Source: an uncultured Clostridia bacterium
Lineage (GTDB): Bacteria; Bacillota; Clostridia; TANB77; CAG-508
Reading direction: 5' to 3'
Assembly: GCA_944386175.1 (NCBI GenBank)
Contig: CALXAB010000001.1
Coordinates: forward strand, 47,645 to 111,644
Length of the DNA: 64,000 nt
Shown here: piece after piece, positions 14,142-58,545 of the stretch
Numbering within the stretch: position 1 is the stretch's first letter
How the letters are laid out: the number at the start of each line of letters is the position of its first letter
Position numbers and translations under genes: made by a program
The notes under the pieces: model-generated
What the model was told of the DNA's origin: nothing
Databases searched by the model: none
The model's input: only the letters and a program-made list of their open reading frames with translations

Positions 14142-14152
14142 ATTAACCTCCA

Positions 14153-14196
14153 TTACAAACGTACTACCATTTTATCATATTGTTGTACGTTTGTAA
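14153..14196. promoter_or_regulatory. inverted repeat upstream of abiEi (candidate autoregulatory operator)
   Basis: TTACAAACGTAC (14153-14164) and GTACGTTTGTAA (14185-14196): perfect 12-bp arms with a 20-nt spacer, 12 nt upstream of the start codon. Confidence 0.5.
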
Positions 14197-18819: not shown

Positions 18820-18858
18820 TTATCTTTTTTTAATTTATTAACAGCTTTAATAAATACA

Positions 18859-20107: not shown

Positions 20108-20345
20108 AGTACACTTAGTGAACTTTTTCTTAAAAATCACTTCTTTTTTGTTCATTTAGTGAACTTTTGCACTCTAAAAAGCGTTTTTTATCCATTCACT
20201 CGGTGAATTTTTGCATCAGATCTGCATAAAATTTTTGTTTTTTTATTAACTCTTGAAGGCTTGCCCTTCAATGTGTATATGCGTTGCGTAATGCACGCTA
20301 TCCTGCCTTTAGTATTCACTTTAGTTCACCTTATCAAAATTAATT
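20108..20345 (-). repeat. partial, orphan copy of the R module (distal half only)
   Basis: Collinear with 51134-51350, 36674-36880 and 43392-43605. Dyads at 20108-20124, 20150-20164 and 20194-20208. Conserved core and hairpin at 20246-20307. No smORF or recombinase adjacent. Confidence 0.85.
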
Positions 20346-27997: not shown

Positions 27998-29317
27998 CTA
28001 TTTTTTATTTTTTTGTAGTATTTTTATAGTTTCATCTAGCGTTATAGTATTTTGTTCCCCTGAATTCATATCTTTTAATGTTATTACATTATTTTTTATT
28101 TCTTCATCTCCTATAATTATTACATAATTTGCATTAATATTATTAGCATACTTGAATTTTTTTCCTATCTTTTGTTGTTCAATATTAATTTGTACATTTA
28201 TACCCTTTTCTCTTAGTTTTGCAGCTACTTTTGCACACATTTCACAGTCATCTGTCATTGAAATTATTAATACTTCTGCAATTGTTTCTTCAGTTGCTGA
28301 AATTATTTTATTATCTATTAGTTGAAAAAATAGCCTTGATAATCCTATTGAAATCCCTACTCCTGGCATTTTTCTATCAGTATAAAATTCTGTTAAATTG
28401 TCATATCTTCCTCCTGAACATATACTTCCTAAGTTTTTATATTGATTTAAAAATGTTTCATAAACTGTTCCTGTATAATAATCTAACCCTCTAGCAATAC
28501 TCAAATCAATTTTATAATTCTCTTCTGGAACTCCAAATATTTCAATAAATTTAGAAACTTCTTTTATTTCTTTTATACCTTCATTAAATATTTCATTATT
28601 AATTTGCATATTTTCTAATTCTTTTATTTTTTCTTCATTGTTTCCTCCTATACCCAAAAATTTAATTATAACATTAGCTTTTTTTTCTGGCATAAGTACT
28701 AATAATTCTTTTTTTACTTCTTCTTTTCCTATTTTTTCTATTTTATCAATTATTCTTAATATTTCAGATGATATATCTTCAAGTTTTAAACTTGAAAAAA
28801 GTCCATTTAATATTTTTCGATTATTTATACATATTGTAAAATCATCAAATCCTAACTTTTTAAAGGTATTATATATAATAGATGGAATTTCTGCATCATT
28901 TATTATTGACAATTCACCATCTCCAATAATATCAACATCACATTGATAAAATTCTCTATATCTTCCTCTTTGAGGTTTCTCACCACGATATACTTTTCCT
29001 ATTTGGTATCTTTTAAATGGAAAACTTAATTTATCATAGTATTCAGTTACATATTTAGCTAATGGTACTGTTAAATCAAACCTCAAAGCTAAATCTGTAT
29101 CTCCTTTTTCAAATCTATAAATTTGTTTTTCCGTTTCTCCTCCAGCTTTGGCCAGTAAAACATTTGCATCTTCTATTATTGGTGTATCTAATGGTACAAA
29201 ACCATATTGTTCGTAAGATTCTTGTATTATCGCTCTCATTTTATTAAATAATATTTGTTCATTAGGTAATAATTCCATAAATCCTGGTAAAGTTTTTGGT
29301 TGTATTTTCCCTTTCAT
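27998..29317 (-). CDS. hisS: histidine--tRNA ligase, copy 1 (divergent type)
   Basis: Class II motifs FRYE-like (KQIYRFEKGD), RYREFYQCDVDIIG and GGRYDNL, plus a C-terminal anticodon-binding domain. 439 aa. Confidence 0.85.
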   Translation of the reverse strand: MKGKIQPKTLPGFMELLPNEQILFNKMRAIIQESYEQYGFVPLDTPIIEDANVLLAKAGGETEKQIYRFEKGDTDLALRFDLTVPLAKYVTEYYDKLSFPFKRYQIGKVYRGEKPQRGRYREFYQCDVDIIGDGELSIINDAEIPSIIYNTFKKLGFDDFTICINNRKILNGLFSSLKLEDISSEILRIIDKIEKIGKEEVKKELLVLMPEKKANVIIKFLGIGGNNEEKIKELENMQINNEIFNEGIKEIKEVSKFIEIFGVPEENYKIDLSIARGLDYYTGTVYETFLNQYKNLGSICSGGRYDNLTEFYTDRKMPGVGISIGLSRLFFQLIDNKIISATEETIAEVLIISMTDDCEMCAKVAAKLREKGINVQINIEQQKIGKKFKYANNINANYVIIIGDEEIKNNVITLKDMNSGEQNTITLDETIKILQKNKK

Positions 29318-29329
29318 TCTAACTCCTCC

Positions 29330-29980
29330 TTAATAATCTCCTTTAATATTTTTTTTCTTTTTATTTCCTTGTTTTTTATGTCTTTCAATTAATTTATCTT
29401 CTATTTCTTGTATTGAAACATTAGATTTAAACATTAATACTAGTGTATGATATATTAAATCAGAAATTTCTCCTATCAATTCTTTTTTATCTATGTTTTT
29501 CGCAGCTATTACTGTTTCAGTTGCTTCTTCACCAACTTTTTTGCATATTTTATCTATTCCTTCATCTAATAAATAATTAGTATATGAATTTTCCTTTGGA
29601 TTAATATTTCTATCAATTATCTGATTATAAATATCCTGTAAGATATTTGTATCATCATTATTTTCATAAGAAACTATTTCCTTAAAAAAGCATGAATAGT
29701 TACCAGTATGACATGCTCCTTTTCCTTCCTGCTTTACATAAATCAACAATGTGTCGTTGTCACAATCTAAATACATGCCTTTTATTTCTTGAATATTTCC
29801 TGATGTTTCTCCTTTATGCCATAATTCTTTTCTACTTCTTGAATAAAAACATGTTTGTTTGTTTTCTATCATATATTTATAACTATCTTCGTTTACATAT
29901 GCTAACATCAATACTTCTTTTGTTTTATAATCTTGTACTATTGCTGGAATTAACTCCATCTTTTTAAAATCTGGCTTCAA
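29330..29980 (-). CDS. hisIE: bifunctional phosphoribosyl-AMP cyclohydrolase / phosphoribosyl-ATP pyrophosphatase
   Basis: HisI part [18 protein letters not shown]...DCDNDTLL...ACHTG. HisE part [15 protein letters not shown]. Confidence 0.9.
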
Positions 29981-30082
29981 TATTCTTCAACTCCTAAAAT
30001 ATTTATATTACTTATATATTGTTATTTTTATTGTGGGGAAAATAATACAATTATTTTCCCCTTTGATTAAACACTTTAAATC

Positions 30083-31447
30083 TTAAAGCTCTTTATCAAG
30101 GTAGATTTTTAAATCTTCCTCTTTTCTCTCTTTCTGTAATCTTCTCATCTTGTCAACACTACTTACACCTTCAAGTAATTTAAATCCTAATTTCACGGCA
30201 ATATTATAGGACATAGATTTACCTATTTCGAGAGTTTTCATATATACTCTTTCATAACCATCCTCTTTCATTACTTCAATAGCATATTTCATTAACTCTG
30301 TCCCAATTCCTTTTCCACGAAACTCTTGTAAGACTGTTATATCAGCAAGATATGCTGTTTTTTCTGGATTATCATAATGGACAGGATGCCTATCTTTTAA
30401 TAACATTTTTCTAAAAGTTACTGTTCCTATACATTCATCTCCAATATAATATCCATAAACATGACCGTATTTTGTTAGTTCTTCATATTCTTCTTTGATT
30501 AAATCATCTGTCCAATCCTCACAATATGGGGGATTACAAAATACTTTATATGCTTTTATAAAGTCTTTTATTTTATCTGGTGTTATTGCTTTGATTCTCC
30601 GTGCCATCATAGTTTTTTCCTCCTCTAATTCAATTGAATATTTTTTTCCATCAGTTTCAACATTGCCTAAAATAGTAGCCTTTTCAAAATTCCCTTCTTT
30701 ATAGATTATGTCTGCTGTAATAATCAATCCAGAAGGCTGTAAAACATCAATTTTTACACTTTCATTTTTTAAATAAGCTTCTACAATACATGTAGCTGTT
30801 GTCCCAGACCCACATGCTGTTTCATAGAAAAGTGTATGAATTTCCTTAACCCATACAATTGGATTAATCTTTATTACACCTTTTTCTTTTTCGCAGAACA
30901 TAACTCCTACTGCTTCACTATATTCAAGATGATATTTATGAATATAGTGCATCCCCATTGCTTTTAAATCCTTCTTATTAATAAGATATTTTTTAGCAAT
31001 TTCATCTTGAATAACTACAGTTACCATACCATTCATTTTTACAATAAAAATTCCTGGCTCTTTTTCAGTGATTACATCATCACCATGATAAAGTGGAATT
31101 TCGCACCATGCCTTTCCTTCTTCATCAACTCCTGCATTAATCAAATCTTTAGAATTTACAAACATTTGTAAATTCCCTGATTTACCATTTAAATAAATGG
31201 TTGCTGCACTTCTTGTTGCATTACCACAAAACTCTCCCCCTGCCATTTGCAATTCAGGTTTATGATTTAATTCAATAAACCCAACCTGCTCAACATTAGA
31301 ATGTTTTGCCATAATCAAATCGTTGATTTTCTTTCTCTGTTTTTGTGTATATTCCAATCCATAAACGAATGCTGTATCATTACCAGCTGGTCTATAAATT
31401 GAATATTCCACATTAGTTACAGATGCTTTGCAATGTTTTTCGTTCAT
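30083..31447 (-). CDS. fusion protein: DapF-fold PLP-independent racemase/epimerase (N-terminal) + GNAT acetyltransferase (C-terminal)
   Basis: RPAGNDTAFV, GGEFCGNATRSAA and ETACGSGTTATC (two catalytic-Cys motifs of the DapF fold). The C-terminal part has VLQEFRGKGIGTELMKYA (GNAT motif A). Confidence 0.65.
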   Translation of the reverse strand: MNEKHCKASVTNVEYSIYRPAGNDTAFVYGLEYTQKQRKKINDLIMAKHSNVEQVGFIELNHKPELQMAGGEFCGNATRSAATIYLNGKSGNLQMFVNSKDLINAGVDEEGKAWCEIPLYHGDDVITEKEPGIFIVKMNGMVTVVIQDEIAKKYLINKKDLKAMGMHYIHKYHLEYSEAVGVMFCEKEKGVIKINPIVWVKEIHTLFYETACGSGTTATCIVEAYLKNESVKIDVLQPSGLIITADIIYKEGNFEKATILGNVETDGKKYSIELEEEKTMMARRIKAITPDKIKDFIKAYKVFCNPPYCEDWTDDLIKEEYEELTKYGHVYGYYIGDECIGTVTFRKMLLKDRHPVHYDNPEKTAYLADITVLQEFRGKGIGTELMKYAIEVMKEDGYERVYMKTLEIGKSMSYNIAVKLGFKLLEGVSSVDKMRRLQKERKEEDLKIYLDKEL

Positions 31448-31520
31448 AATGTTCTCCTTTCTTTGAATTGAAGGTAAGTATAAAATATTTATACTTAGTA
31501 ATGAATAAATTACATTAATT

Positions 31521-31549
31521 ATTATATATTCATTTTATGTAAAAGTCAA
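31521..31549 (-). promoter_or_regulatory. sigma-A-type promoter for the racemase-GNAT/hisIE/hisS unit
   Basis: TTGACT (31549-31544), 17-nt spacer, TATAAT (31526-31521). Its -35 overlaps the hairpin GTAAAAGTC...GACTTTTAC (31539-31577) just after the hisG stop. Confidence 0.5.
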
Positions 31550-31579
31550 GAAAATCCAGTATATTCAAGACTTTTACGG

Positions 31580-32215
31580 TTATTTATTATTTTGTTTTTC
31601 TATTAAATCAATTAAATTTAAAATTTCTTCCTTCTTATACTTAAATTTAGTCTTATTACAAATTAATCTTGTACTTACATCTGCTATTTTCTCTATAACT
31701 TCTAAGCCATTCGCTTTCAATGTTGCTCCTGTTTCTACTATATCTACTATTGCATCTGTTAATCCAACTACTGGTCCTAATTCAACTGACCCTTCAAGTT
31801 TTATTATTTCAACATCTTCATCTTTACTTTCAAAATAGTTTTTAGCAACACTAGGATATTTTGTTGCTATCCTTTTTCTTCTATTTAATTTTAGATTTTT
31901 ATATTCAGGATAACTACAGACTGCAAATGAGCATTTTCCTATTTCCAAATCTAGTAATTCATAATAATTTTTAAAAGAATTTTCCAGTAATGTATCACTA
32001 CCTACAATTCCTATATCAACAATACCATGTTCAATAAAGGTAACTACATCGTTTGACTTTGCAAATATTATTATCATTTTATCTTCTACGTTTATTTGTA
32101 ATTCTCTTTTTTTATTTATCATAGATTCTACATTATATCCTAATTTTTCTAACATTTCTGTCATCTTTTTTTCTATTCTACCCTTTGTTAAGGCTATCTT
32201 TAACATTTTGTTCAC
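31580..32215 (-). CDS. hisG: ATP phosphoribosyltransferase, short form
   Basis: 211 aa. [13 protein letters not shown] and [18 protein letters not shown]. The short HisG form requires HisZ. Confidence 0.9.
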
Positions 32216-33176
32216 CTGCTCTTTCTACTGCTTTTAATATATTATCCATATAATAAGCCATTCCTATGGCTGGTACATCCTTTCCGAAATTGTTATATAA
32301 TTTGTCATATCTTCCACCACTTATTATAGGTTCTTCTACAAATTTACTATATACTTTAAATATAATTCCTGTATAATATTCCATATTAGGAACACAAGCC
32401 AAATCAAACAAATCTTGTTGTTTCATATTCATGGTTTCATACAATTCTTTCAATTCTATTAGACTATTCTTTAATTCATTATCTCTTAATTTTTCTATGG
32501 TTCTTACTAATATTTCTATATTTCCATTAAGTCTTGGTAAAGATATTAAAAAATTGCTTATATTTTTATCTATATTATATTTATCACAAAATTTTTTTAA
32601 TCCACTTATATTTTTTTGTAGTAATAGCTGCGAAAACTCTTTCTTTTTTTCAGATCCAACTATTTGGCATAATCTATTATAAAAACTAGCTGAACCAAGT
32701 TCTATCTTTAAATCCTTTAATCCAAAAAGTGGTAAAGATTTTTGTAATAATGATATACACTCTACATCTCCTTCTATTGCTTTTTTTCCAATTAATTCTA
32801 TCCCTACTTGGTATATTTCGCTATTCTTTCCTTTATGTTCCTTTTCTTTTCTATATACTTTTCCAAAATAGCAATACCTTTTTATTTCATCTTTTTTTTG
32901 TGATACATAGTATCTAGCTATTGGAACTGTAAAATCCCATCTTAAAGCAACATCTTTTCCTTCTTTATTTATATATTTGAATAAAGTACTCTCATCTAAA
33001 TTCTTATATACACTTTTATATAATTCCACATATTCAAATGTTGGCATCAGCATTTCTATATATTTTTCATCATAGAATATCTTTCTCAATTTACTTTCAA
33101 AATTTCTTAATTTATTAACATTCTCAGTAATTACCCCACTACTTTCTTCTGGTATTGAAAATTTGTATAATTCCAT
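32178..33176 (-). CDS. hisZ: ATP phosphoribosyltransferase regulatory subunit (HisRS paralog without anticodon-binding domain)
   Basis: 332 aa with a HisRS-like catalytic core ([19 protein letters not shown]). Overlaps hisG. Confidence 0.85.
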
Positions 33177-33196
33177 AAAAATTCTCCTTTCACATT

Positions 33197-33251
33197 AAAA
33201 AGCTATATAGTTAAATAATATCTTTCTATGAATATTATCTACCTATATAGC
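33197..33251 (-). terminator. attenuator terminator in the hisZG leader
   Basis: On the minus strand: GCTATATAGG (33242-33251) ... CTATATAGC + TTTTT (33197-33210), 20 nt upstream of the hisZ RBS. Confidence 0.65.
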
Positions 33252-33314
33252 TTTATATTTTTATATAGGCACATCAAAATCGACTTGTGCCTATACATTA
33301 TATTAGACACAAGT

Positions 33315-33362
33315 TTAAAAATGATGATGCACTTTATTTATATTTTTAGTTATATTCTTCAT
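33315..33362 (-). CDS. 15-aa leader peptide MKNITKNINKVHHHF with three consecutive His codons
   Basis: AAGAGGAA RBS, ATG at 33362-33360, CAT CAT CAT at 33329-33321, TAA at 33317-33315. Followed by overlapping alternative stems. Confidence 0.6.
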   Translation of the reverse strand: MKNITKNINKVHHHF

Positions 33363-33392
33363 TTTTATTCCTCTTTTTTCTTATTTTTAATT

Positions 33393-33421
33393 ATAATACA
33401 TTATTTTTTTATATATGTCAA
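33393..33421 (-). promoter_or_regulatory. sigma-A-type promoter of the hisZG leader
   Basis: TTGACA (33421-33416), 17-nt spacer, TATTAT (33398-33393). Confidence 0.6.
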
Positions 33422-33482
33422 GTACAAAATTCATTTTTTTTAACATGCTATAACCAATTATGATTATAGCATGCTTTAGATT

Positions 33483-33767
33483 TTACTTAGAGAAAGATAT
33501 AATTGCATAATGTCGCTTTGCATCAATTTGATAATAAGAATGCCCCCTAATATTAATTGGCTTTTCTATTGTTTTAATAGAAATTTTCAGCCCATTACCA
33601 TTTGCCCAGCTTGTTAGTTCTCTTTCCATAGCAACATCTACATCCCTTTTTTCTTTTTCAATCTGAACTTTCTTGAAAAATACTAATGCTACTTTTACTT
33701 TGAACTTAATCCATTCCGTATCAAACCGTGACCTTTCTCTTCTTTTTCTACTTTCAAATTTTGACAT
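33483..33767 (-). CDS. hypothetical basic protein (94 aa)
   Basis: ORF only. Followed by the hairpin AGCATGCTATAA..TTATAGCATGTT. Confidence 0.35.
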   Translation of the reverse strand: MSKFESRKRRERSRFDTEWIKFKVKVALVFFKKVQIEKEKRDVDVAMERELTSWANGNGLKISIKTIEKPINIRGHSYYQIDAKRHYAIISFSK

Positions 33768-33873
33768 ATAGATTTACCTCCTACTATTTATTTTATTTAT
33801 TTTATCACATACACTTATATTTTTCAATTAAAATTTTAGGAAGCCATGCATTATACACAGCTCCCTATGATTT

Positions 33874-35205
33874 TCAGTCCTTATTATTAGTTTCGATAAA
33901 TTGCATAATCCCTTCATAGTCAAAGATACCGAACTCTCGATTGTTTCCAGTTTCCATATCCTTGACTTGGATTTTTTGCTGTTTGATTTCATCTTCCCCA
34001 ATAATAATAACGTAAGGAATGTTCATTTTGTTGGCATAATTCATACTTTTTTTCAGTTTCTGAGTCTTTTTTTCCATTTCTGTTTTGATTCCAACTTCAC
34101 GCATTTTAGTAACAAACTTAAATGTCTGTTCTTCTGTTCCCATTGGAATCACAAACAAATCAACGGTAGAAAACTTTTTGTCAGAATTCTTTAAGACTAA
34201 AATTTCATATATAACATCTAATCCAAAAGACATTCCAACTGCTGGATATTCATTTCCATCATCAATGAATGTTGTAATAATTTTATCGTATCTGCCTCCT
34301 CCTCCTATGCTCATGTTGAAATCTTGTACACCAACTTTTCTGTCTTTCAGGAAAATCTCCCAAACTGTACCAGTATATATATCAATCCCTCTTGCCAAAT
34401 AAGGAGCAAATTTCATGCATTTTTCGGCCTCTGTTCCTGACAGATAATCATATAATGCATCAATTTCTTTTATCCCTTCGGCAATCATTTCATTATCATA
34501 TACTGATAATAATCTTTTTAATGTTACATAATCAGAGTTTAGAACATTTTTCAATGCCTCCACTTTATTGGCATCAATACCAATAGCTGCAAACTCTTCA
34601 AATAATTCTTCCTCTGTGAGTTTGGCAAACTTATCAATCAACATGATTGATTTTCTTAATATTTCTTCCGAAACATCACCAAAAATAGAGAAGATGATAC
34701 CACTCAATAGCTTTCTGTTGTTGAATTCTATTTCAATGTCAAGTCCTAGCTCTTTATATGCTTCGCTTGTCATTGTCATGTATTCTGCTTCTGCTAAAAC
34801 ACTTTTAACTCCAACAACATCAACATCGCATTGGGTAAATTCTCTGTTTCTACCTACCTTAACTGGACCATCTCTAAAAACTTTTCCAATCTCATACCGT
34901 TTAAAGGGTAAGGTAACTCCTTTATTTGAACTAATCAATTTAGAAAAAGTGATTGTCAAATCATACCTTAAACCCAGTTTTCTTTTTCCTTGATCACTCA
35001 ATTTGTACATCTCGTTCAGAATATCTGCACCTTCTGAATATTTAGATGCCAATAAGTCATACATACAAAGAATTGGTGTTTCGACTGGTGAAAATCCGTA
35101 CTTTACAAAGATGCTTTGCAATACACTTTTGATTTTTTCCCGGATAATTTGTTTTTCCGGCAAATAATCATAAGTCCCCTTTAAGTTTTCAAAATTTCTG
35201 CTCAT
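33874..35205 (-). CDS. hisS: histidine--tRNA ligase, copy 2 (canonical bacterial type)
   Basis: KGTYDYLPEKQ, LRYDLTITFSK, NREFTQCDVDVVG and GGGGRYDK, plus an anticodon-binding domain. 443 aa. Confidence 0.85.
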   Translation of the reverse strand: MSRNFENLKGTYDYLPEKQIIREKIKSVLQSIFVKYGFSPVETPILCMYDLLASKYSEGADILNEMYKLSDQGKRKLGLRYDLTITFSKLISSNKGVTLPFKRYEIGKVFRDGPVKVGRNREFTQCDVDVVGVKSVLAEAEYMTMTSEAYKELGLDIEIEFNNRKLLSGIIFSIFGDVSEEILRKSIMLIDKFAKLTEEELFEEFAAIGIDANKVEALKNVLNSDYVTLKRLLSVYDNEMIAEGIKEIDALYDYLSGTEAEKCMKFAPYLARGIDIYTGTVWEIFLKDRKVGVQDFNMSIGGGGRYDKIITTFIDDGNEYPAVGMSFGLDVIYEILVLKNSDKKFSTVDLFVIPMGTEEQTFKFVTKMREVGIKTEMEKKTQKLKKSMNYANKMNIPYVIIIGEDEIKQQKIQVKDMETGNNREFGIFDYEGIMQFIETNNKD

Positions 35206-35450: not shown

Positions 35451-36125
35451 TTAAAATTCCCTTATATCATATCTAAAATATAGTCCATCCATTTTTATTT
35501 TATGAAAATCTTTTATTATATTTTCTTTGACTTTATTAAAATCTTTTCCTACTCTTCTTAATGCAAATACTCTACCTCCTGAAGGATATAGTATATTATT
35601 TTTTGATATTATATGTTCCCCTATAATATCTGTTGTATTTTTTACTTTGTTCATACCTAAAATTGGTTCATCAAAACTACTTCTTTCTACTTCTGGATAT
35701 CCTGCTGAAAATCCATACATTGCTATAGAAAAGCAGTCTTTTTTCCAACAATTATTTATCTTTTCTACATCTTCATAAAAGAAATTTATTATATCTATAA
35801 AAGGTTTATTCAGTAACCCTAATAAAGCTAACCACTCTGGATTACCTGTTCTTGTATTATATTCTAATACATATACTTTTTTATCTTCGGTAACCATTAT
35901 TCCTATATATAAAATATAGTTATATTCCATATTTTCTTTTTTCATACCTCTTATAGTTGGTTCTATTATATCTTTTTTTAATTGTTCTTCTTTTTCTGTG
36001 CTAACTCTTGCATAAGCACATACTCTTAAATTACCTTTTATAACTTCTCCTGTTGTTCTATTAATTCTTCCTTTTTTCTTCTCTATTACTTGTACTTTCA
36101 AATTTAACCTCTCTTTCTCAAGCAT
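35451..36125 (-). pseudogene. chimeric ORF: first 48 codons of an LSR gene fused in frame to the C-terminal ~176 aa of a PurD-like (phosphoribosylamine-glycine ligase) gene
   Basis: Residues 1-48 (MLEKERLNLKVQVIEKKKGRINRTTGEVIKGNLRVCAYARVSTEKEEQ) are almost identical to LSR 48681-50573. From 35981 leftwards the sequence matches the PurD C-terminal half (EYNTRTGNPEW, SGGRVFAL, DGLYFRYDI). Confidence 0.8.
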
Positions 36126-36439: not shown

Positions 36440-36890
36440 ATTTTTTGATAATACAATTATATTATGCTGTTCTATAAAGTTCAATTCCCGTTTTTTTCCC
36501 TTTTTTCTATTTTAATTGATAAAGCGTTGACTTTTTAGTTAGTACACTAAGTAAACTTGTGTAAAAATTTTTTTAATTATTTTTTACTTTATTATTTTTG
36601 AGTTCACTTAGTGTACTTTTTGTTTTGTATTTAAAAACCTTAGTTCACTTAGTGAATAAAAAACTAACTTTCAAGTACACTTGGTGAACTTTTTCTTAAA
36701 AATCACTTATTTTTCGTTCATTTAGTGAACTTTTGCACTCTCAAAGGCATTTTTTAGCTGTTCATTCGGTGAATTTCCGCATCAAATTTGCTTAAAATTT
36801 TTGTTCTTTTGTTAACTCTTGAAGGCTTGTCCTTCAATGTGTATAGGCGATGTGTGCACACTCGCTTTCCTGCCTTTAGTATTGTTTTTT
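36440..36890 (-). repeat. R module, copy A
   Basis: Dyads at 36541-36557, 36601-36617, 36642-36658, 36674-36690, 36716-36730 and 36760-36774. Core and hairpin at 36812-36874. Ends 2 nt from the stop of the ABC gene. Confidence 0.85.
36456..36484 (-). promoter_or_regulatory. consensus sigma-A promoter of unit A'
   Basis: TTGAAC (36484-36479), 17-nt spacer, TATAAT (36461-36456). A terminator-like leader hairpin at 36403-36427 plus a T-run follows. Confidence 0.6.
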
Positions 36891-40505: not shown

Positions 40506-40581
40506 GAAAAAATCCGCAATAGAAATAATGTCAAGAGCGAGTGATAATGAGTTTATTTACTCTTGATATTATTTTTATTGC
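40506..40581 (-). terminator. long conserved hairpin H (copy b) with T-run
   Basis: On the minus strand: GCAATAAAAATAATATCAAGAG - 22-nt loop - CTCTTGACATTATTTCTATTGC, then GGATTTTTTC. Confidence 0.65.
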
Positions 40582-40821
40582 AGATTAAATTTACCCTGCA
40601 AATGTATGAGGCAAAAAATAAGTATCAGTACATATCTACCGACACTTAAATTTATAAAGATTCTCTATTACTTATTTCATAAATTCTTTCTAGCAATTGA
40701 AATAACTGATAATTTTACATATCTACAATTAAACACAACCTATATATGTCATGCTTATCATAGACACAATCTCAAATTCCCTAGTATTTCAAACACTTCT
40801 ATCAATTTTCTAAAATTTAAT

Positions 40822-41004
40822 TTATGTGTTTCCACTTACCACATCTGCAACTACTTTAACTTTCACATCTGAATTTTGATGTTTTTCTCTTCCATATCTT
40901 CCTTTTTTCTCGAAAGTTATAATCTCTGAAAACATATCAAATTCAAGTATTACCTGTCCTGTTTTAGTTGTAGCACTGCCACACATTCCACATGTGTTGG
41001 TCAT
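40822..41004 (-). CDS. CxxC tail module of LSR B, in a separate overlapping frame
   Basis: MTNTCGMCGSATTKTGQVILEFDMFSEIITFEKKGRYGREKHQNSDVKVKVVADVVSGNT is homologous to the in-frame C-terminus of LSR C. Overlaps the end of LSR B by 41 nt. Confidence 0.5.
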   Translation of the reverse strand: MTNTCGMCGSATTKTGQVILEFDMFSEIITFEKKGRYGREKHQNSDVKVKVVADVVSGNT

Positions 41005-42881: not shown

Positions 42882-43058
42882 TTACAAAAGTTTATAATCT
42901 TTTAAGATTTTTCTTTTTATTTCAATATATTCTGAATCTAGTATTAAGTTTTCTCTAAACAAATTATTTAAAAACAATAATTCCATGCTACAGTCTAGCA
43001 TATTATTATCTTTTAGTTGTTTAGAGTTATCTACTTCTATTTTATAATTATGTAGCAT
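42882..43058 (-). CDS. 58-aa conserved small ORF preceding the LSR (copy B)
   Basis: AAGGAG RBS. MLHNYKIEVDNSKQLKDNNMLDCSMELLFLNNLFRENLILDSEYIEIKRKILKDYKLL aligns with copies A and C. Confidence 0.55.
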   Translation of the reverse strand: MLHNYKIEVDNSKQLKDNNMLDCSMELLFLNNLFRENLILDSEYIEIKRKILKDYKLL

Positions 43059-43149
43059 GAAATTGCTCCTTTTCTTTAAATTTGAAAAGAAAAAGAACAA
43101 AGAAACTAGAATCTTTCTAATCCCTTTGCTCTTTCTCTTTCATACTACC

Positions 43150-43178
43150 ATTATATTATCGTGTTTTTATATAGTCAA
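43150..43178 (-). promoter_or_regulatory. consensus sigma-A promoter of unit B
   Basis: TTGACT (43178-43173), 17-nt spacer, TATAAT (43155-43150). Confidence 0.6.
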
Positions 43179-43199
43179 TTCCATTTTTATTCCCTCTTT

Positions 43200-43640
43200 T
43201 CTATTTTTGATATAATTCTAGTATCTAATTTTATAAGTACACTAAGTAAACTAAAAATTGTATAATTTTAAATTGCAGTTCACTTGGTGTACTAGAAAAA
43301 TATAACAAAAGTTCACTAAGTGTATTTGTAAATTTTGTTTTATTTTCACATTCACTTAGTGAACTAAATTCAAAAATATTATTCAATATCAAGTACACTT
43401 GGTGAACTTTTTCCCAAAATAAGTGAATTTTTTTAATTTTTTAATTCACCATTTTTAATTTTGAACGAAGAATAGCGGGTTTGAGCCAGTTCACCGAGTG
43501 AATTTTTACATCATATTTGCATAAAATTTTTGTTTTTTTATTAACTCTTGAAGGCTTGTCCTTCAATATGTATAGGCATTTTGTTAAGAATGCTATCCTG
43601 CCCTCATTTTCAATGAGGTATTTTGCTCTTAAAATGTACT
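43200..43640 (-). repeat. R module, copy B (diverged)
   Basis: Dyads at 43236-43252, 43277-43293, 43310-43326, 43350-43365, 43392-43408 and 43488-43504. Outward-facing half sites at 43422-43450. Core and hairpin at 43541-43603. Confidence 0.8.
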
Positions 43641-43685
43641 TATTCTACTTAATTAAATATACTTATCCTTAAATCCTCTTAATCG

Positions 43686-43769
43686 AAAAACAATGTGCTT
43701 TTAAAAATAAGTCAAGGTTGTGCGATAGCACATTTATTTAAACCTTGACTTGTTTTTATAAAGCACATT
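43686..43769 (-). terminator. long conserved hairpin H (copy c) after the ParB-like gene
   Basis: ~28-bp stem AATGTGCTTTATAAAAACAAGTCAAGGTT / AACCTTGACTTATTTTTAAAAGCACATT followed by GTTTTTCG (minus strand). Confidence 0.6.
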
Positions 43770-43788
43770 ATACTTTTCTAAAAGGATT

Positions 43789-45225
43789 TTAACTATTTAT
43801 AAAAAATTGAATTATTGCAAATATTCCCATATCTGAAATTGTTTTTATTGCATCTACATTAGCAATAACTTTATAAGGGTGATGAATTACTAAATCTAAA
43901 TAGTTTTTCATTCCTTCATTATTAAAACATGTCTCCCATGCTCTTGAAATAGTATCGTCATCAATAAGATTTTGTTTATCTATTGATATTTTATTTATAA
44001 TCTTCTCTAATCTCAAGTCCAAATTATTATTTGCAGATTTCCATTTTTCCCATTTTCCTTTGTTTATTAAAAAATAGATGCTTGATTGTTCTAATAATGA
44101 GCGGATTAAAAAGCAATATGATATTGGGTAATTTTTATATAAATTTCCAAATGATAAATGCTGAATTTCATAGCATAGATTTTTAATCCCTTTAGCTCTA
44201 TCATTACTATATTTTAGTTTGCTACAATTAATATTTTTAAATAAAATACTATTGTCTTTTCTTGTTAATCTGATTTTATTAAATGCTATACTTTCATTTA
44301 TTTTATTTTTTACTATTTCACTTTCATTGGCATTATTATGTTTTTCTTCTCTACCATTAGAAAATATCTTCATTTGTTCATTTTTATTTTCTAAATTTTC
44401 ATTTATTTTATCTTTGCTGTCAAACCTTTCACTAACATTATTTTCTATATTGCCATACAAATATTTTTCTATATTAGCATTATTTTTTATTGTGTTACTT
44501 GTAATCCTACCACTTACAATATCTTGAACAATTCGTAATACTTTCTTGTCTAATTCATTTATTGAAGACAATGGCATTAAAACATTGTTATTAAAAGAAA
44601 TATTCAGATATTCTTTACCAACTTTTGAAGAAACAATCTTTTCAAACTTATTTACTGAAAAATTATTGTCAACTCCATCAAATGCTTTTTTACAAAATCC
44701 TTGTAATTGTGAAAATATATTTTTTACTCCCATTTTATCTTCAAATCTTTTTATTGAAGCTGTATCCCATTTTAAAGCTCCTGTATCAGTTGTATGTACA
44801 TTTCTTATATATCCAGCACAATCTTCAAATGAAGTGGCCACATAACAAGGAATTTGAAAATATTCTTCTCCTTGAATTCCTGCACTCATTGCATATATGC
44901 TTCTTATTTGTGTATATGAAAAGTATTTAAAAGATTCTACCAATTTAGGATTTTTTAAGATTTTCATTGCTGTTAATCTTCTATTACCATCCCATGCCAC
45001 AAATTTTTCTTTTTTCTCATCATAAGTGACTGTAACTATTGATTGTGGATACCAACCATTTGTGTAAATATCACTAATTAACTTATGCATTGCCTTCGCT
45101 TCTTTAGAATTTCTCACCAATTGTTGCATTATAAAAAGTTCATCCGCTATCATAATTTGTGTATGTCTTGGATTCTCTGGATTTACTAATATTTTTTCTA
45201 TGTCTATTAGTTGATGTTCTCTCAT
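43789..45225 (-). CDS. ParB/Srx-fold N-terminal domain protein with a large uncharacterised C-terminal region
   Basis: ILVNPENPRH and VAWDGNRRLTAMKIL (ParB-like nuclease/NTPase motifs). GGGGGA RBS before MREHQL. Confidence 0.55.
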   Translation of the reverse strand: MREHQLIDIEKILVNPENPRHTQIMIADELFIMQQLVRNSKEAKAMHKLISDIYTNGWYPQSIVTVTYDEKKEKFVAWDGNRRLTAMKILKNPKLVESFKYFSYTQIRSIYAMSAGIQGEEYFQIPCYVATSFEDCAGYIRNVHTTDTGALKWDTASIKRFEDKMGVKNIFSQLQGFCKKAFDGVDNNFSVNKFEKIVSSKVGKEYLNISFNNNVLMPLSSINELDKKVLRIVQDIVSGRITSNTIKNNANIEKYLYGNIENNVSERFDSKDKINENLENKNEQMKIFSNGREEKHNNANESEIVKNKINESIAFNKIRLTRKDNSILFKNINCSKLKYSNDRAKGIKNLCYEIQHLSFGNLYKNYPISYCFLIRSLLEQSSIYFLINKGKWEKWKSANNNLDLRLEKIINKISIDKQNLIDDDTISRAWETCFNNEGMKNYLDLVIHHPYKVIANVDAIKTISDMGIFAIIQFFINS

Positions 45226-48680: not shown

Positions 48681-50573
48681 TTATACTACTCCGCACACCA
48701 TGTCAACTTCTATCGTTACTTTAATTTTATGATTTTCTGTTCTTTTAACCTTATTTTTGCCTTTTCTATCAAAACTAATAAAATCTTCAAAAGCAGTAAA
48801 TTGGGCTATTGTATCGAATCTTTCAGACATAGCACCGAGCAACACTCCACATGGCTCACACCCAGTCTGTAGATAGTTTTGGCTTACCTCGTATGATGAC
48901 TGTTGCAAACTACCTTGATTTTTATCTTTTTGACATTTGATTTCGTTTCCAGATTTTAGGATAAATGTTATTACTCTTGGATTTACATCTCCATTTTGTT
49001 CTTTTTCTCCTATTATAACTTTTTCTATCATTAATTCAAAAACATCTTTATCAAATGTTGGCATTATTTCATCATCTTTAAATAGACTTTTAAACTTGTT
49101 TAATCCTTGATTTAAACTAATTGAATCTTCTAACTCTAGTTGTAAATGTTCTTGCTCTTTTTCTATTTTGTTTATCTTGTTTTGTAATTTTGCCTTTTTA
49201 TCTTTTAATGTTTCAAGTGTTATTGTTCCATTCAAGTTTAAATCAATTAACTTGTCTATCTTTTCTTTTAAAGTTTGTTTTTCTTCTTCTAATTTTTTAA
49301 TAGAACTTTCATTACTTTCTTCTTGTATGATTTCTTCCATTTGTTTTAAGAATGTTTTGATTAGTTTTTTGTTATTATTACATAAAAGTTTATAACTTTC
49401 TGTAAATGCTTCTTCTATAATGTTTTCTTTCATTGCTTTACAATATGGGCAATTTTCTTTTCCATGTTTTACAAATTCCATACAATGCCATACCGTAATA
49501 CTATTTTTTGTTCCAGAGTGCCAGTTTCTTCTTGTTAATAAACTTCCACAAAAACCACAATATATTCTACTACTAAAAGGATATTTTCTGCTAAAGTTTC
49601 CTTTTCTTCTTCCAGAGCCTCGTACTCCTCCTCGCTTTTGTAATATTTCTTGTGCTTGATTAAACATTCTTTCTGAAATAATTGGTTCATGATGTTCTTG
49701 TATGTAATACTGATTTTCTTCTCCCATATTGACTACTCTTCTATGTGAGATTGGATCTGTTGTATATGTTTTTCCTTGTAAGACATCTCCTTTGTATTTT
49801 TCGTTTTTCAAAATACCTCTTATAGTTGAGTCATGCCATTGTTTCTTTCCTGTTGGTGTTTTATATTTCATAGCAGTTAGTTCTTTTGCAATTGTTGTGC
49901 AACCTACTCCTTGACAGTATCTTTCAAAGATATATCTTACTATTTCTGCTTCTTGATAATTTACTGATATTTTCTTTGTTTCTTTATCATATACATATCC
50001 TAAACATCCATTATATCCAATTAATTCTCCTCTTTTTTGTTTCATCTGTAATCCTAGTTTTACATGAGAAGATATATTTTCGCTCTCCTGCTGTGCCATT
50101 GCACTCATTACTGTTAGCATTACTTCGCCAGATAATTCTAAAGTATTGATGTTTTCTTCTTCAAAATAAATAGTGATTCCTTTTTCCTTTAATAATCTTA
50201 CATACTTTAAAGTATCTACTGTATTTCTTCCAAATCTTGATATTGATTTTGTAATTATCATGTCAAATTTGTTTTCTGTTGCATCTTGCATCATTCTCAT
50301 AAAGTTATCTCTTTTATAGTCAAGTGTTCCTGTTATCCCTTCATCTGCATAAATCCCTACATAAGTCCAATCACTTCTTGATTTTATTTTTTCTTCATAA
50401 TATTTTAGCTGAGAATTATAACTATTTATTTGTTCTTCTTTTTCTGTACTAACTCTTGCATAGGCACATACTCTTAAATTGCCTTTTATAACTTCTCCTG
50501 TTGTTCTATTAATTCTTCCTTTTTTCTTCTCTATTACTTGTACTTTCAAAATTAACCTCTCTTTCTCAAGCAT
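48681..50573 (-). CDS. large serine recombinase, unit C, with an in-frame C-terminal CxxC tail
   Basis: VCAYARVSTEKEEQ, SISRFGRNTVD, CGFCGSLLTRRNW...CPYCK and a coiled coil. About 90 extra C-terminal residues are homologous to ORF 40822-41004. Confidence 0.9.
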   Translation of the reverse strand: MLEKERLILKVQVIEKKKGRINRTTGEVIKGNLRVCAYARVSTEKEEQINSYNSQLKYYEEKIKSRSDWTYVGIYADEGITGTLDYKRDNFMRMMQDATENKFDMIITKSISRFGRNTVDTLKYVRLLKEKGITIYFEEENINTLELSGEVMLTVMSAMAQQESENISSHVKLGLQMKQKRGELIGYNGCLGYVYDKETKKISVNYQEAEIVRYIFERYCQGVGCTTIAKELTAMKYKTPTGKKQWHDSTIRGILKNEKYKGDVLQGKTYTTDPISHRRVVNMGEENQYYIQEHHEPIISERMFNQAQEILQKRGGVRGSGRRKGNFSRKYPFSSRIYCGFCGSLLTRRNWHSGTKNSITVWHCMEFVKHGKENCPYCKAMKENIIEEAFTESYKLLCNNNKKLIKTFLKQMEEIIQEESNESSIKKLEEEKQTLKEKIDKLIDLNLNGTITLETLKDKKAKLQNKINKIEKEQEHLQLELEDSISLNQGLNKFKSLFKDDEIMPTFDKDVFELMIEKVIIGEKEQNGDVNPRVITFILKSGNEIKCQKDKNQGSLQQSSYEVSQNYLQTGCEPCGVLLGAMSERFDTIAQFTAFEDFISFDRKGKNKVKRTENHKIKVTIEVDMVCGVV

Positions 50574-50939: not shown

Positions 50940-51355
50940 GTTTTTTTCCCTTTTTTCTATTTTAATTGATAAAGTGTTGATTTTTTAGTTAGTACACTAA
51001 GTGAACTTGTGTAAAAATTTTTTTAATTATTTTTTACTTTATTATTTTTGAGTTCACTCGGTGTACTTAGTTTTTTATTATATCAATTTTTAGTACACTT
51101 AGTGAACTAATTATAAATTATTTCATAAAATTTAGTACACTTGGTGAACTTTTTCTTAAAAATTACTTATCTTTCGTTCATTTAGTGAACTTTCACACTC
51201 TAAAAGAGATTTTTTAGTCATTCATTCGGTGAATTTTTGCATCAAATTTGCTTAAAATTTTTGTTCTTTTATTAACTCTTGAAAGCTTGACCTTCAATGT
51301 GTATATGCGTTGCGTGATGCACGCTATCCTGCCTTTAGTGTTCACTTTATATCCT
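50940..51355 (-). repeat. R module, copy C
   Basis: Dyads at 50991-51007, 51051-51067, 51092-51108, 51134-51150, 51176-51190 and 51220-51234. Core and hairpin at 51272-51333. Abuts the stop codon of the 617-aa gene. Confidence 0.85.
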
Positions 51356-53265: not shown

Positions 53266-54111
53266 TTATTTTTTTAATTCATTCTTTATTTCTTCTAATA
53301 CTCCCATCGTATCTTCATAATTAATATCTTCTGCATAACTAAATTTAGATTGATAATTCTTCCAATGCTCTTTCAGAACATCACTTTCTTTTATAACTTC
53401 CATTATCTCATTTATATTATTTAATTTATCCATTGAACCTCTATATTCAAATTTCTTCAATATAGCTTGTCCTAATAATTCTTTATTAAAATTTTGTTGT
53501 TGAGTAGTCCATAATATATAAATATCATAAAAATCTCTCGCTCTTGTAGTATCTATATTTCTTGATATAATTGTTTCAAATTTATCAGCTATTACTGTTT
53601 CCATATTATATGCTAATATTTCTATTGAACGATTTTCAAACATTAAATCGAACTTATAATTTACTTCTTTTGGAACAATTACATCTCCTGTTGTTATATC
53701 TAATTTCATTGGTACAACTAACTTATCAAATTTAGCATCTAAAGCTACTCTGTATCCTCCATATTCATCTTCTTGTCTTATTTCTTTTATACTTCTAAAT
53801 TCAAATGCTACTCCATCATCTAAATCTATATTAAAAATTTCATTTAAGATATTTTCAAGATTATCCTTTTCTAAATCAAATCCTTTTATCGTTGCATCCA
53901 TATCAAGAGTATTTCTCATGTCTATTCCAACTATTGCTGTTATTAACATTCCTCCTTTTAATACAAATTTATATTTGTATTTTGATACCGAAATTCTTTC
54001 CAATAGTCTTTCTAGCATATAGTTTTGTAAAATAATGTTTTCATTCACATCTACTTTATCTGACATATTCTTTATCCATGCTTTTAATTGTGCTCTATTT
54101 TTTGCTATCAC
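53266..54111 (-). CDS. AbiEii/AbiGii-family nucleotidyltransferase toxin (third locus, intact)
   Basis: FVLKGGMLITAIVGIDMRNTLDMDATIKG nucleotidyltransferase core. 281 aa. Overlaps the abiEi stop by 4 nt. Confidence 0.8.
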   Translation of the reverse strand: MIAKNRAQLKAWIKNMSDKVDVNENIILQNYMLERLLERISVSKYKYKFVLKGGMLITAIVGIDMRNTLDMDATIKGFDLEKDNLENILNEIFNIDLDDGVAFEFRSIKEIRQEDEYGGYRVALDAKFDKLVVPMKLDITTGDVIVPKEVNYKFDLMFENRSIEILAYNMETVIADKFETIISRNIDTTRARDFYDIYILWTTQQQNFNKELLGQAILKKFEYRGSMDKLNNINEIMEVIKESDVLKEHWKNYQSKFSYAEDINYEDTMGVLEEIKNELKK

Positions 54112-54701
54112 AATAACACCTCCAAGTATTTTCTTACTTCATCTTCAATATTAAATAATTTTGCATATTTGTGTAGTTTAATAGAGTTTCTATCTTTTCT
54201 TTCAGCATATCTTTTCATCGCATCTGTAAATAAGGCAATTTCTATTTTTTTCTTATTTCTGATAATGTCACATATTGTTCTCTCTAAATCATAAACTTTA
54301 ACTTTGTTTCCATATGGTGTATTCATTTCTATTATTCCTAATTCATATAATTCATCTTTTAAATAGAAAAATTGATAGTTTCTATCTTTTAGTAATTTAG
54401 TATTATAGTAACTAGGTATAGTCAATTGATATTTTATGGGAGTTCTATCACATAAATCATGAAAATACAAAGCTGTCTCATGAGAGAATATCCCTTTTTT
54501 ACAAATTGCTTGTGTGATAAAATAATTATCTTCAAATGTATCTGCTCCAATATATACTCCTCTTGCTACTCTATCTATCAATCCCTTTTCTATCATCCTT
54601 GTTAAAATCTTATTATTTATCCCAATATCTTCTACTTGATATGTTTCAATCACTCCATTATTATTTTTTAATAATTTTTCTACTTTTTCTATATCATCCA
54701 T
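54108..54701 (-). CDS. AbiEi-family antitoxin (third locus)
   Basis: NNGVIETYQVEDIGINNKILTRMIEKGLIDRVARGVY wHTH region. Paralog of 13551-14141. Confidence 0.75.
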   Translation of the reverse strand: MDDIEKVEKLLKNNNGVIETYQVEDIGINNKILTRMIEKGLIDRVARGVYIGADTFEDNYFITQAICKKGIFSHETALYFHDLCDRTPIKYQLTIPSYYNTKLLKDRNYQFFYLKDELYELGIIEMNTPYGNKVKVYDLERTICDIIRNKKKIEIALFTDAMKRYAERKDRNSIKLHKYAKLFNIEDEVRKYLEVLL

Positions 54702-57929: not shown

Positions 57930-58364
57930 ATTTGCTTAACTACCCCAAAATCTCCAATAGAAATAATGTCAAGAGCGAGTGATAACAAGTTCATTTACTC
58001 TTGACATTATTTGTATTGGAGATTAAAATTGCTTTGCAAATGTATAGCACAAATTTTTCGCTTTTTTCGTGATATAAAATTCCATCGGACGAAAATTTCA
58101 ATTTTTTCGTCCGATAAATTTTTATAAGCCGAATTTCATTAAATTTTCGTCCTATAAAAAATAAGCATCAGCAGATATCTACCAACACTTAAATTTATAA
58201 AGATTCTCTATAACTTATTTCATAAATTCTTTCTAACTATTAAAATAACTAATAAATTCACATATCTACTAACCACCTCAACCTATATATGTTTTTCTTG
58301 CCATAGATACAATCTCAAATTTCCTAGTATTTCAAACACTTTCATCAATTTTCTAAAATTTAAT
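57930..58364 (-). repeat. copy d of the non-coding segment found downstream of LSR B (40480-40821), with hairpin H at 57952-58021 and a ~120-bp insertion
   Basis: Collinear with 40480-40821. The insertion at ~58040-58165 carries TTTTCGTSNKATAAA motifs, including the perfect IR ATCGGACGAAAA / TTTTCGTCCGAT (58084-58115). Confidence 0.8.
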
Positions 58365-58545
58365 TTATGTGTTTCCATTTACCATATCTGCAACTACTTT
58401 AACTTTCACATCTGAATTTTGATGTTTTTCTCTTCCAAATCTACCTTTTTTATTAAAAGTTATAATCTCTGAAAACATATCAAAATCAAGTATTACCTGC
58501 CTTTCTTTAGTTGTAGCACTGCTACACACTCCACATGTGTGGTCG
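58365..58545 (-). pseudogene. orphan 3' end of an LSR gene (CxxC tail only)
   Basis: HTCGVCSSATTKERQVILDFDMFSEIITFNKKGRFGREKHQNSDVKVKVVADMVNGNT with no start codon. Similarity to LSR B stops at ~58545, next to CACATGTG (58532-58539). Confidence 0.75.

Follow-up and report, generated by a model that had tools for sequence, protein, structure and literature searches.

What acts on a short block of non-coding DNA that stands four times, always on the same strand, in an island of varied genes? The question is posed by a stretch of 64,000 nucleotides from an uncultured Clostridia bacterium (GenBank assembly GCA_944386175.1, contig CALXAB010000001.1, positions 47,645 to 111,644 of the forward strand), referred to here as the window, in which positions are counted from its first letter. 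Each copy of the block joins an inverted-repeat core to a small hairpin, hp1, and a motif ending in TCCTGCC. It is clear from related genomes that the pairing of hp1 has been kept while its sequence has changed. The block is tentatively read as a conjugative transfer origin, or oriT-like module, carried by small elements that encode a large serine recombinase (LSR) and are stacked in tandem in a chromosomal island; we put this forward with somewhat less than even confidence.

A conserved block in four copies

The sequences considered here are the right-hand half of a conserved non-coding block that is about 113 nt long in most copies and whose recognisable left edge varies. It runs from the last of a series of 15-bp palindromes, through an A/T-rich stretch, to a 7-5-7 inverted repeat, hp1 and T(T/A)TCCTGCC, and it forms the end of a non-coding region, R, of 0.7-0.9 kb which lies upstream of a small open reading frame (ORF). 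The recurrent unit is taken as the approximately 113 nt from palindrome to CCTGCC because cargo genes join it at several points, none of which lies to the left of CCTGCC.

An earlier note on this DNA had placed four copies at 20246-20307 (the orphan copy), 36812-36874 (A), 43541-43603 (B) and 51272-51333 (C), and all four are indeed present there on the + strand. The 22-nt core CTCTTGAANGCTTGNCCTTCAA is found on that strand at 20250, 36816, 43545 and 51276, four matches where 0.01 would be expected by chance, and a profile search of the window with the block region gave no copy beyond these. The parts follow one another in the same order in each copy: the inverted repeat TTGAAGG-CTTGY-CCTTCAA, the nine bases TRTGTATAK, hp1 of 18-19 nt, and T(A/T)TCCTGCC. 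The 7-5-7 repeat with arms TTGAAGG/CCTTCAA that the note had described is found in 4/4 copies, with the amendment that the left arm of copy C is TTGAAAG, which leaves an A.C mismatch; likewise, the motif said to be conserved after the hairpin is TATCCTGCC in the orphan copy, B and C, and TTTCCTGCC in copy A. The hairpin variants are as they had been given, with GCGT-T-GC..GC-ACGC in the orphan copy and C, GCGA-T-GTG..CAC-TCGC in A, and GCATTTT..AGAATGC in B. Both the core hairpin and hp1 fold as single-stranded DNA in all of the window copies (z-scores -1.8 to -4.0).

Further copies were collected by a genome scan using one genome per species, which returned at least 115 stretches; the counts for loci given below rest on these matches. 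Among the matches listed, all but one chance match (L064) are from uncultured gut Clostridia in human, mouse and chicken samples; one listed genome is labelled Candidatus Merdicola, and many genomes carry several copies.

Pairing in hp1 is conserved

Covariation was measured on 89 distinct copies from gut Clostridia, with 500 shuffles and with controls in which the pairing partner was slid along the alignment. Changes that preserve pairing were found at pair 46-60 (GC 55, AU 26, GU 5), pair 47-59 (AU 41, UA 32) and pair 50-57 (UA 53, CG 14), and 79 cells were changed on both sides against 26.6 expected. Neither the covariation score nor the percentage of paired cells was reached by any of the shuffles, the real structure pairs at 93% compared with 36-49% in the slid-partner controls, and RNAalifold independently recovered both hairpins. 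The earlier proposal that the structure itself is under selection is therefore borne out, and the covariation on which it was based has statistical support in the larger alignment.

The 7-bp arms of the core could not vary in this set, having been fixed by the search pattern. Three copies from the loci lie outside the pattern and carry, respectively, one compensated arm change from T-A to A-T, one G.T and one A.C. The compensated change belongs to a second, diverged copy of the block in L020 (5400-5520, motif on the + strand; core CTCTAGAAGACTTGTCCTTCTA), where both bases of arm pair 2 differ, so that T-A has become A-T; no other compensated change was seen in the arms.

There is also some asymmetry between the strands. 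When 40 distinct hp1 variants were folded, the + strand was the more stable in 23, the - strand in 7, and 10 were tied; furthermore, the minimum-energy folds contain 17 G.U/G.T pairs on the + strand and 5 on the -. This bias toward the + strand is suggestive, not conclusive.

These folds bear on whether the block could be the cis-regulatory region of the recombinase operon. In that case the repeat and palindromes would be operators for a dimeric repressor, and hp1 would fold within the 5' leader of an mRNA read from the - strand; this mRNA may begin at a promoter that overlaps hp2, a second hairpin to the right of hp1. Several features would suit such a role. The block is always found on the upstream side of the small ORF and recombinase gene, at a distance of 0.7-1.1 kb and in a single orientation, and R holds five or six of the palindromes, GTWCACTnRGTGWAC (35 matches vs 0.02 expected), 33-60 bp apart and for most about 41 bp, or four helical turns, so phased that they resemble protein-binding sites. 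In the canonical copy of L065 a promoter-like TAGACA-17-TAAAAT points from the hp2 region to the recombinase gene, and the one compensated core-arm change suits a symmetric binding site as well as a hairpin. However, of the copies with a left flank of 3 kb or more, roughly one in two has, on our reading of the loci, no recombinase gene in its vicinity to be regulated, and yet copies of this sort retain the block (85-90% identity). The wobble bias is toward the + strand rather than that of the mRNA, and TAGACA-17-TAAAAT is absent from the class-2 copies, in which another sequence follows CCTGCC (below). In addition, the upper stem of hp1 has two registers, the bulge switching from the 5' arm to the 3' arm, and both its loop and its total length vary, unlike an operator of fixed spacing. 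The moving bulge and variable loop therefore favour a folded nucleic acid over such an operator, and a regulatory role for the block appears unlikely.

Sequence to the right of CCTGCC

In the uninterrupted form, seen in copy B and most of the loci, CCTGCC is followed by hp2 with a run of T, then by ..TTATGTCTACTTAATTAAATATACTTATCC|TTAAATCC.. and a long hairpin, alpha. In 29 of 117 copies CCTGCC is instead followed by another class of segment (TTTAGTATTCACYTTAGTTCAC, or TTTAG and then cargo), and cargo often begins a few nucleotides later. A comparable long hairpin, beta, stands about 450 nt 3' of every B-type recombinase gene where it was detected (7 loci), while alpha follows the block in most genomes; both are near-perfect, some 76-80 nt in length, and have a small inner hairpin and TTGACT boxes in their arms. 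They could also be single-strand promoters or single-strand origins.

The presence of hp2 raises the possibility that the block encodes a small non-coding RNA on the + strand, made up of the core hairpin, hp1, hp2 as intrinsic terminator and, serving as a seed or for protein binding, the invariant single-stranded UUUCCUGCC. Consistent with this, hp2 with TATTTT scores as a terminator on the + strand only, the excess of G.U pairs is on the same strand, hp1 covaries, and the hairpins are those recovered by RNAalifold. On the other hand, no acceptable sigma-70 promoter was found upstream on the + strand, and around one copy in four (those of class 2 and several at cargo junctions) lacks the terminator although the block is still conserved there. 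Rfam gave no match, beyond chance hairpin matches, either for the whole window at the gathering threshold or for 43100-43850 at E values up to 10. A small RNA is therefore given a low probability. Two related candidates were dropped. A sigma-70 promoter within the core (TTGAAG-17-TATAGG on +, TTGAAG-17-TAATAA on -) never has T at position 6 of its -10 element and that '-10' varies between copies; hp1 was rejected as an intrinsic terminator because no T-run follows it on either strand.

Exchange in the core is not supported

The earlier note had taken the inverted repeat with its central CTTG for a compact serine-recombinase crossover site. This view has against it the lack of half-sites, the linkage across the core and a separate LSR site, termed site O. 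In 854 kb of related loci there were 0 cases of a left or right arm joined to foreign sequence. A metagenome scan for the left arm with a non-canonical right side, which was run without a positive control, gave 40 matches, none of which had the upstream context of the repeat; they are chance matches inside coding genes.

The linkage data come from 98 distinct copies. A polymorphism 10 nt to the left of the core is linked, across it, to hairpin type (Cramer's V 0.65, p=4e-9), whereas hairpin type and the class of sequence after CCTGCC, only some 10 nt away, are unlinked (V 0.09, p=0.85). It follows that re-sorting has taken place just past TCCTGCC and not in the core. Nor does the core have the anatomy of an LSR attachment site: it has 7-bp arms, an odd spacer of 5 nt and no symmetry past the arms, where a dyad of about 40-50 bp with a 2-bp crossover would be expected.

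The core, or the segment from hp1 to CCTGCC, could still be a site-specific recombination site of another sort, at which identical copies in direct repeat excise and reinsert cargo as cassettes. All copies are direct repeats flanking co-oriented cargo, as this would require, and the free assortment across CCTGCC shows that there is some site-specific joining beside hp1. The absence of hybrid junctions is not decisive here, because exchange between identical sites, of the res or loxP type, leaves none. Nevertheless, the LSRs own a conventional site, O, at which hybrid junctions are seen, and the anatomy of the core, the strong linkage across it and the lack of half-sites in either data set all count against such a site. 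The same block also stands beside LSRs of about 30% identity, which should not share a DNA specificity. Finally, the array of the window recurs in six other metagenome contigs, with gene order identical in the three distinct places shown and no rearranged variants seen. Cassette exchange of this kind is considered very unlikely.

Site O is the probable recombinase site

Homology breaks sharply at a point in the 3' end of the recombinase genes (at about 48850 in the C-type gene and about 40991 in the B-type gene, with a further instance in a gene remnant at about 58534), which reads ...GCACCGAGCAACACTCCACATG| on the + strand and is likely to be the attachment and crossover site of the LSR. Among 31 instances of site O the right-hand 'tail' is constant and the left partner falls into at least six classes, including C-type bodies, B-type bodies, a third recombinase type, unrelated sequence and the 3' end of a rumA-type gene. 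The last of these (TRAM and tRNA_U5-meth_tr domains) is joined at ..TTTACAAGCCA-TG-TGGA.. to the element 'tail' in six genomes (L022, L033, L068, L079, L081, L107), where the rumA-type gene is intact; the window itself has no rumA body. Recombinant junctions thus map to site O and away from the core, an outcome that the earlier note had named as one that would count against its crossover.

Read directly on the - strand, site O is ..GATAT-N18-CCA-TG-TGG-N16-ATATC.., an imperfect dyad of about 50 bp around the dinucleotide, and such a dyad is the usual anatomy of an LSR site. Over its final 58 codons the C-type gene coincides with a copy of the rumA-type 3' end (HVECCSVLYLK) that is read in another frame, so that rumA and recombinase reading frames share the DNA of site O in different frames. 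The recombinase gene ends in a rumA-like tail because the crossover site is inside its own 3' end. The alternative that a recombinase gene is split between neighbouring elements was rejected, since body type and tail type stay associated. A further candidate, 'site 2' (TTATCC|TTA), had been considered as the recombinase crossover since cargo junctions cluster there, and was dropped because the sharp break with rumA partners was found at site O. Serine-integrase mobilizable elements that target rumA, and their accretion in tandem, are known from Streptococcus (PMC5704250).

In a near-complete genome (L160, a 1.86-Mb contig, ERZ28754687 contig_14102) the start of the island, at 1940-2160, adjoins a clp ATPase gene; it opens with a site-O-like sequence and 'tail', again without a rumA body. 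In the array of that genome, the place in which one would look for a recombinase gene is taken by a group II intron reverse transcriptase and an rve transposase.

The block resembles a transfer origin

If the LSR acts at site O, what is the block for? Its structure and covariation, the invariance of its motif, the strand bias, the homology break, the assortment and the location of the LSR site elsewhere are shown here; nicking, the identity of the relaxase and mobilisation are inferred. In oriT regions of the MOBP class the nick region has the consensus (C/T)ATCCTG(C/T), and the inverted repeat upstream is more variable (PMC3772185). The block shares this trait, with a variable inverted repeat directly 5' of a nick-like region: hp1, of which there are 40 distinct variants with kept pairing, ends 7 nt before the G|C of an invariant TCCTGCC. 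The RP4 substrate is GGGCCTACTTCACCTATCCTGCCCGGCTGA (PMC3772185), and RP4 CCTATCCTG|CCCGG has 9 nt, TATCCTGCC, in common with the orphan copy, B and C. These three window copies, together with L077, L083 and L106, read TATCCTGC, while copy A and about 95% of other copies read TTTCCTGC, in which the first base of the hexamer is changed. Over the loci as background, [TA]TCCTG[CT] occurs at 2.4e-4 per nt, so a match within a few nucleotides of a given hairpin is expected at about 1e-3. As the 29 copies with another class of sequence after CCTGCC show, only the 5' side of the motif is constrained, and free assortment together with conservation that ends after TCCTGCC fits a nick or joining point. 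The excess of G.T pairs on the + strand fits a hairpin in the strand that is nicked and transferred.

The distribution of the block points the same way. It is found upstream of LSRs that are just 27-32% identical to those of the window (L065 and L080; L058 is similar but partial, ending at a contig edge), as well as in the copies without any recombinase gene; such placing is to be expected of a site for a shared host or helper factor, and not of one that coevolves with its recombinase. A related arrangement is carried by a conjugative MOBQ plasmid of Anaerococcus prevotii, pAPRE01 (L156, NC_013164.1 39690-49252). There, two ABC transporter genes, a hairpin with TTTTCCTG, a small ORF and a recombinase gene with a rumA-like tail, THVETVALL, are in the same layout, and the LSR is 47-49% identical. 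Serine-integrase integrative mobilizable elements need an oriT, and some of them are without a relaxase (PMC5704250).

Under the transfer-origin reading, a relaxase from a co-resident conjugative element would act in trans, recognising hp1 as a + strand hairpin and nicking 7 nt downstream of it at TCCTG|CC. Cargo, to the right of the nick, would be transferred first and the recombinase side last, and the core and phased palindromes would bind accessory proteins of the relaxosome or regulatory proteins. Once transfer is complete, integration of the circle would fall to the LSR, acting at its site O in or next to a rumA-type 3' end. The stretches that would be candidate relaxase substrates are TGTGTATAGGCGATGTGTGAACACTCGCTTTCCTGCCCTCA and the core.

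The core has been included because the nick might instead be made in its loop, GCTTG|Y, by a relaxase of Firmicute type. Firmicute nick sites include RYGCTTG|C of Tn1549 and TGCTTG|CCA of pRJ6 (PMC7755788); against these, the core loop AGGCTTG|Y matches at GCTTG and has G at the Y position of RY. The base following this putative nick is T in 57, C in 30, A in 10 and G in 1 of the 98 distinct copies. TCCTG|CC is favoured over GCTTG|Y because of the linkage data.

The same loop invites comparison with replication. Rolling-circle nick sites of the type CTTG|ATA exist, and the block might be a replication element of the excised circle, either a rolling-circle double-strand origin nicked in the hairpin loop CTTG or a single-strand origin, with the palindromes as iterons. 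The loop CTTG|Y recalls such nick sites, the palindromes are phased as iterons are, and the hairpins do form in single-stranded DNA. Set against this, no minimal element has a Rep gene, the plasmid and phage collections searched gave no match, and the few mismatched core variants favour the - strand or neither. A role in replication is held to be very unlikely.

Several points weigh against a transfer origin. ATCCTG is a hexanucleotide required in vitro by RP4 TraI and VirD2 (PMC3772185), and most copies have TTTCCTG. No relaxase family appeared in Pfam scans of the window ORFs or in Pfam-annotated neighbourhoods, and none of 855 ORFs of at least 120 aa from the loci contains H-x-D-x(3-4)-H-x-H, an expression that would miss relaxases of the Rep_trans type. 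To our knowledge, nick sites of the ATCCTG type are from Proteobacterial MOBP systems and not from Firmicutes. A blastn search of PLSDB plasmids with 361 nt gave no match, a scan of IMG/VR viral contigs with the upstream flank gave 0, and thus neither pointed to a helper element. One frequent hairpin lineage, GCGATATGTTAATACCGC (13 rows), pairs better on the - strand. The likeness of the motif to nick regions was noticed after the fact, and two nick-like motifs in one block cannot both explain it. A literature search for oriT sequences with GCTTGC or TTCCTGCC found nothing useful.

In a more elaborate form of the transfer-origin reading, the direct-repeat blocks would play the part of T-DNA borders, between which a helper relaxase would run from one block to the next and so package units of 'cargo + recombinase'. 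Strand exchange at the nick would re-sort cargo, and the outcome, with the LSR also at work, would be an array of accessory and defence genes, all co-oriented, that is integron-like yet needs no integron integrase. In that case alpha and beta could be single-strand promoters from which the recombinase is expressed on the incoming strand. In the window ORFs and annotated neighbourhoods no tyrosine recombinase was found. We regard this extension as speculative and improbable.

Genes and other features of the island

All genes of the region are on the - strand, and the features discussed are collected in Table 1. The two LSRs of the window each have Pfam Resolvase, Recombinase and Zn_ribbon_recom domains. 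Neither Pfam nor PHROG gave a match for the conserved ORF of 58-61 aa; from a reading of its sequence its C-terminus appears SHOCT-like. Copy A retains R, the small ORF and the first 49 codons of the recombinase gene, after which the sequence continues as the 3' part of a purD-like gene; the join may have come about by deletion or through an event mediated by a recombinase. The resulting ORF (35451-36125) joins C-type codons bearing the catalytic RVST motif to a purD-like C-terminal part (GARS_A/GARS_C), and the same fusion recurs in contigs from other samples, where it is called as a 216-aa gene.

Table 1. Positions of the block copies, recombinase genes and associated features in the window
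Feature	Position	Strand	Remarks
Orphan copy, block	20253-20307	+	No recombinase gene to left; core 20253-20271, hp1 20281-20298, TATCCTGCC 20299-20307
Orphan copy, arms	20253-20259 / 20265-20271	+	
Copy A, block	36819-36874	+	Core 36819-36837, hp1 36847-36865, TTTCCTGCC 36866-36874
Copy A, arms	36819-36825 / 36831-36837	+	
Copy B, inverted-repeat core	43548-43566	+	
Copy B, arms	43548-43554 / 43560-43566	+	
Copy B, hp1 (GCATTTTGTTAAGAATGC) then TATCCTGCC	43576-43602	+	
Copy C, core TTGAAAG-CTTGA-CCTTCAA	51279-51297	+	Loop GCTTG|Y resembles Firmicute nick sites (table in PMC7755788)
Copy C, arms	51279-51285 / 51291-51297	+	
Copy C, hp1, GCGTTGCGTGATGCACGC	51307-51324	+	
Copy C, nick-like motif TATCCTG|CC	51325-51333	+	Same 9 nt as RP4 oriT nick region (RP4 oligonucleotide, PMC3772185)
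hp2 (CCTCATTTTCAATGAGG) then TATTTT	43602-43618	+	In window only at copy B; terminator-like on + strand; 88/117 copies elsewhere
'Site 2' CTTATCCT|TAAATCC	43662-43676	+	Second nick-like sequence; recurrent cargo junction in other genomes
Alpha hairpin, ~28-bp stem	43692-43769	+	Inner GTGCGATAGCAC hairpin; terminator-like on - strand; TTGACT boxes in arms
Beta long hairpin	40511-40586	+	~450 nt 3' of B-type recombinase gene; second copy 57949-58024
Palindrome array in R of copy C (15 bp)	50992-51190		Spacing 41-60 bp, ~41 bp for most
Similar palindrome arrays	43237-43407, 36542-36730, 20109-20164		First has additional site 43489-43503
Conserved small ORF, 61 aa	50617-50802	-	Between R and C-type recombinase gene; copy B counterpart 42882-43058, 58 aa
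LSR, C type, 630 aa	48681-50573	-	Pfam domains
LSR, B type, 571 aa	40964-42679	-	Pfam domains
Site O, likely attachment/crossover site	48827-48875	-	In 3' end of C-type gene; ..GAGCCA-TG-TGGAGTGTTGCTCGGTGCTAT..; central dinucleotide 48850-48851
Site O equivalents	40991-40992; 58534-58535		B type; gene remnant

The cargo between the copies consists of ABC transporters, AbiE pairs, a Schlafen/AlbA_2 protein, HD and GNAT enzymes and an APH-family phosphotransferase. AbiE parts stand at three sites of the island, as a lone AbiEi (13551-14153), a lone AbiEii (21768-22589) and a pair of AbiEii and AbiEi (53266-54701). Two HisRS-like genes (27998-29317 and 33874-35205), which fall to the right of the orphan block and to the left of copy A, are accompanied by hisZ, hisG and hisIE in or beside the island (27998-35205). 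The repeat finder gave a 63-nt direct repeat of 71% identity at 18795-18857 and 33072-33134. In the window from about 13000 to 58000 and in loci L001-L115 almost all of the cargo is co-oriented with the recombinase genes, and the - strand dominates the clustered gene families. The cargo of the loci is very diverse (384 clusters from 728 ORFs) and includes AbiE pairs, RhuM, reverse transcriptases, Schlafen/AlbA_2, GNATs, APH-family phosphotransferase and ABC transporters.

Ordinary chromosome, in which the spoIIIA operon and yebC are found, makes up the leftmost 12 kb of the window. The operon lies at 3878-9404 (AA, AE and AH detected), and since it is present the host is probably a spore former.

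Discussion

As a whole, the system resembles a kind already known, the tandem accretion of mobilizable-type elements that have a serine integrase and target rumA, and by analogy the logic of the island seems comparable to that of composite SCCmec islands. New here are this particular conserved block, with a hairpin that co-varies, its abundance within a gut clade that is uncultured, and the possibility that elements with little beyond a recombinase, a 60-aa ORF and the block depend on it for their mobilisation. Minimal recombinase islands marked by the block form a very abundant family in uncultured gut Clostridia of small genome size, and their genes include those for abortive infection, further candidates for defence, transporters and resistance-type enzymes. 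Were the block an oriT, this would explain how islands move without transfer genes, and it would provide a short sequence tag for the islands and for their conjugative helpers in metagenomes. The attachment site located here, in the recombinase 3' end with a match in the rumA 3' end, should be useful for mining LSRs with defined targets.

The sites used by small serine recombinases, res site I, hix and gix, are like the block in being short inverted repeats near a serine recombinase gene. They have half-sites of about 12 bp and a 2-bp centre, however, whereas the block has 7-bp arms, a 5-nt spacer, no evidence of exchange, and neighbouring LSRs that have another site. Integron attC sites are also repeated structured elements in which pairing and not sequence is conserved, which fold on one strand and which bracket co-oriented cargo; the block differs in having no IntI tyrosine recombinase, a flank that is invariant rather than degenerate, and a far shorter hairpin of 18-19 nt.

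The likeness to MOBP transfer origins (RP4/RK2, Ti T-DNA borders and H. pylori tfs4) lies in the variable inverted repeat 5' of a conserved nick region of which only the 5' side is constrained, and T-DNA borders further resemble the block arrays in that direct repeats of the site bracket segments of DNA. The differences are that the block mostly has TTTCCTG and not ATCCTG, that no cognate relaxase was found nearby, and that the host is a gut Clostridium of low GC content. Mobilizable genomic islands (MGIs) of SXT/R391 and IncA/C, and SGI1 arrays, which have no relaxase and imitate the oriT of a helper, combine an integrase with an oriT in cis, depend on a helper and form tandem arrays, as is proposed for the block; unlike the present elements, they use tyrosine integrases, belong to Proteobacteria and have known helpers.

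The rumA-targeting integrative mobilizable elements (IMEs) of Streptococcus (PMC5704250) share with the elements described here an LSR integrase, junctions at the rumA 3' end, and the stacking of related, decayed and distant elements in tandem with varied cargo. The present elements are by contrast minimal, consisting of a recombinase, an ORF of about 60 aa and a non-coding block with no relaxase or coupling protein found; furthermore, their crossover is inside the 3' end of the recombinase gene and their host is of another clade. SCCmec has a different target gene and recombinase clade, and SCC elements are without a comparable repeated hairpin block. It is nevertheless alike in that its Ccr LSRs integrate at the 3' end of a methyltransferase gene, that for the rRNA methyltransferase rlmH/orfX, in that integration regenerates a usable site, and in its tandem composite islands of diverse cargo.

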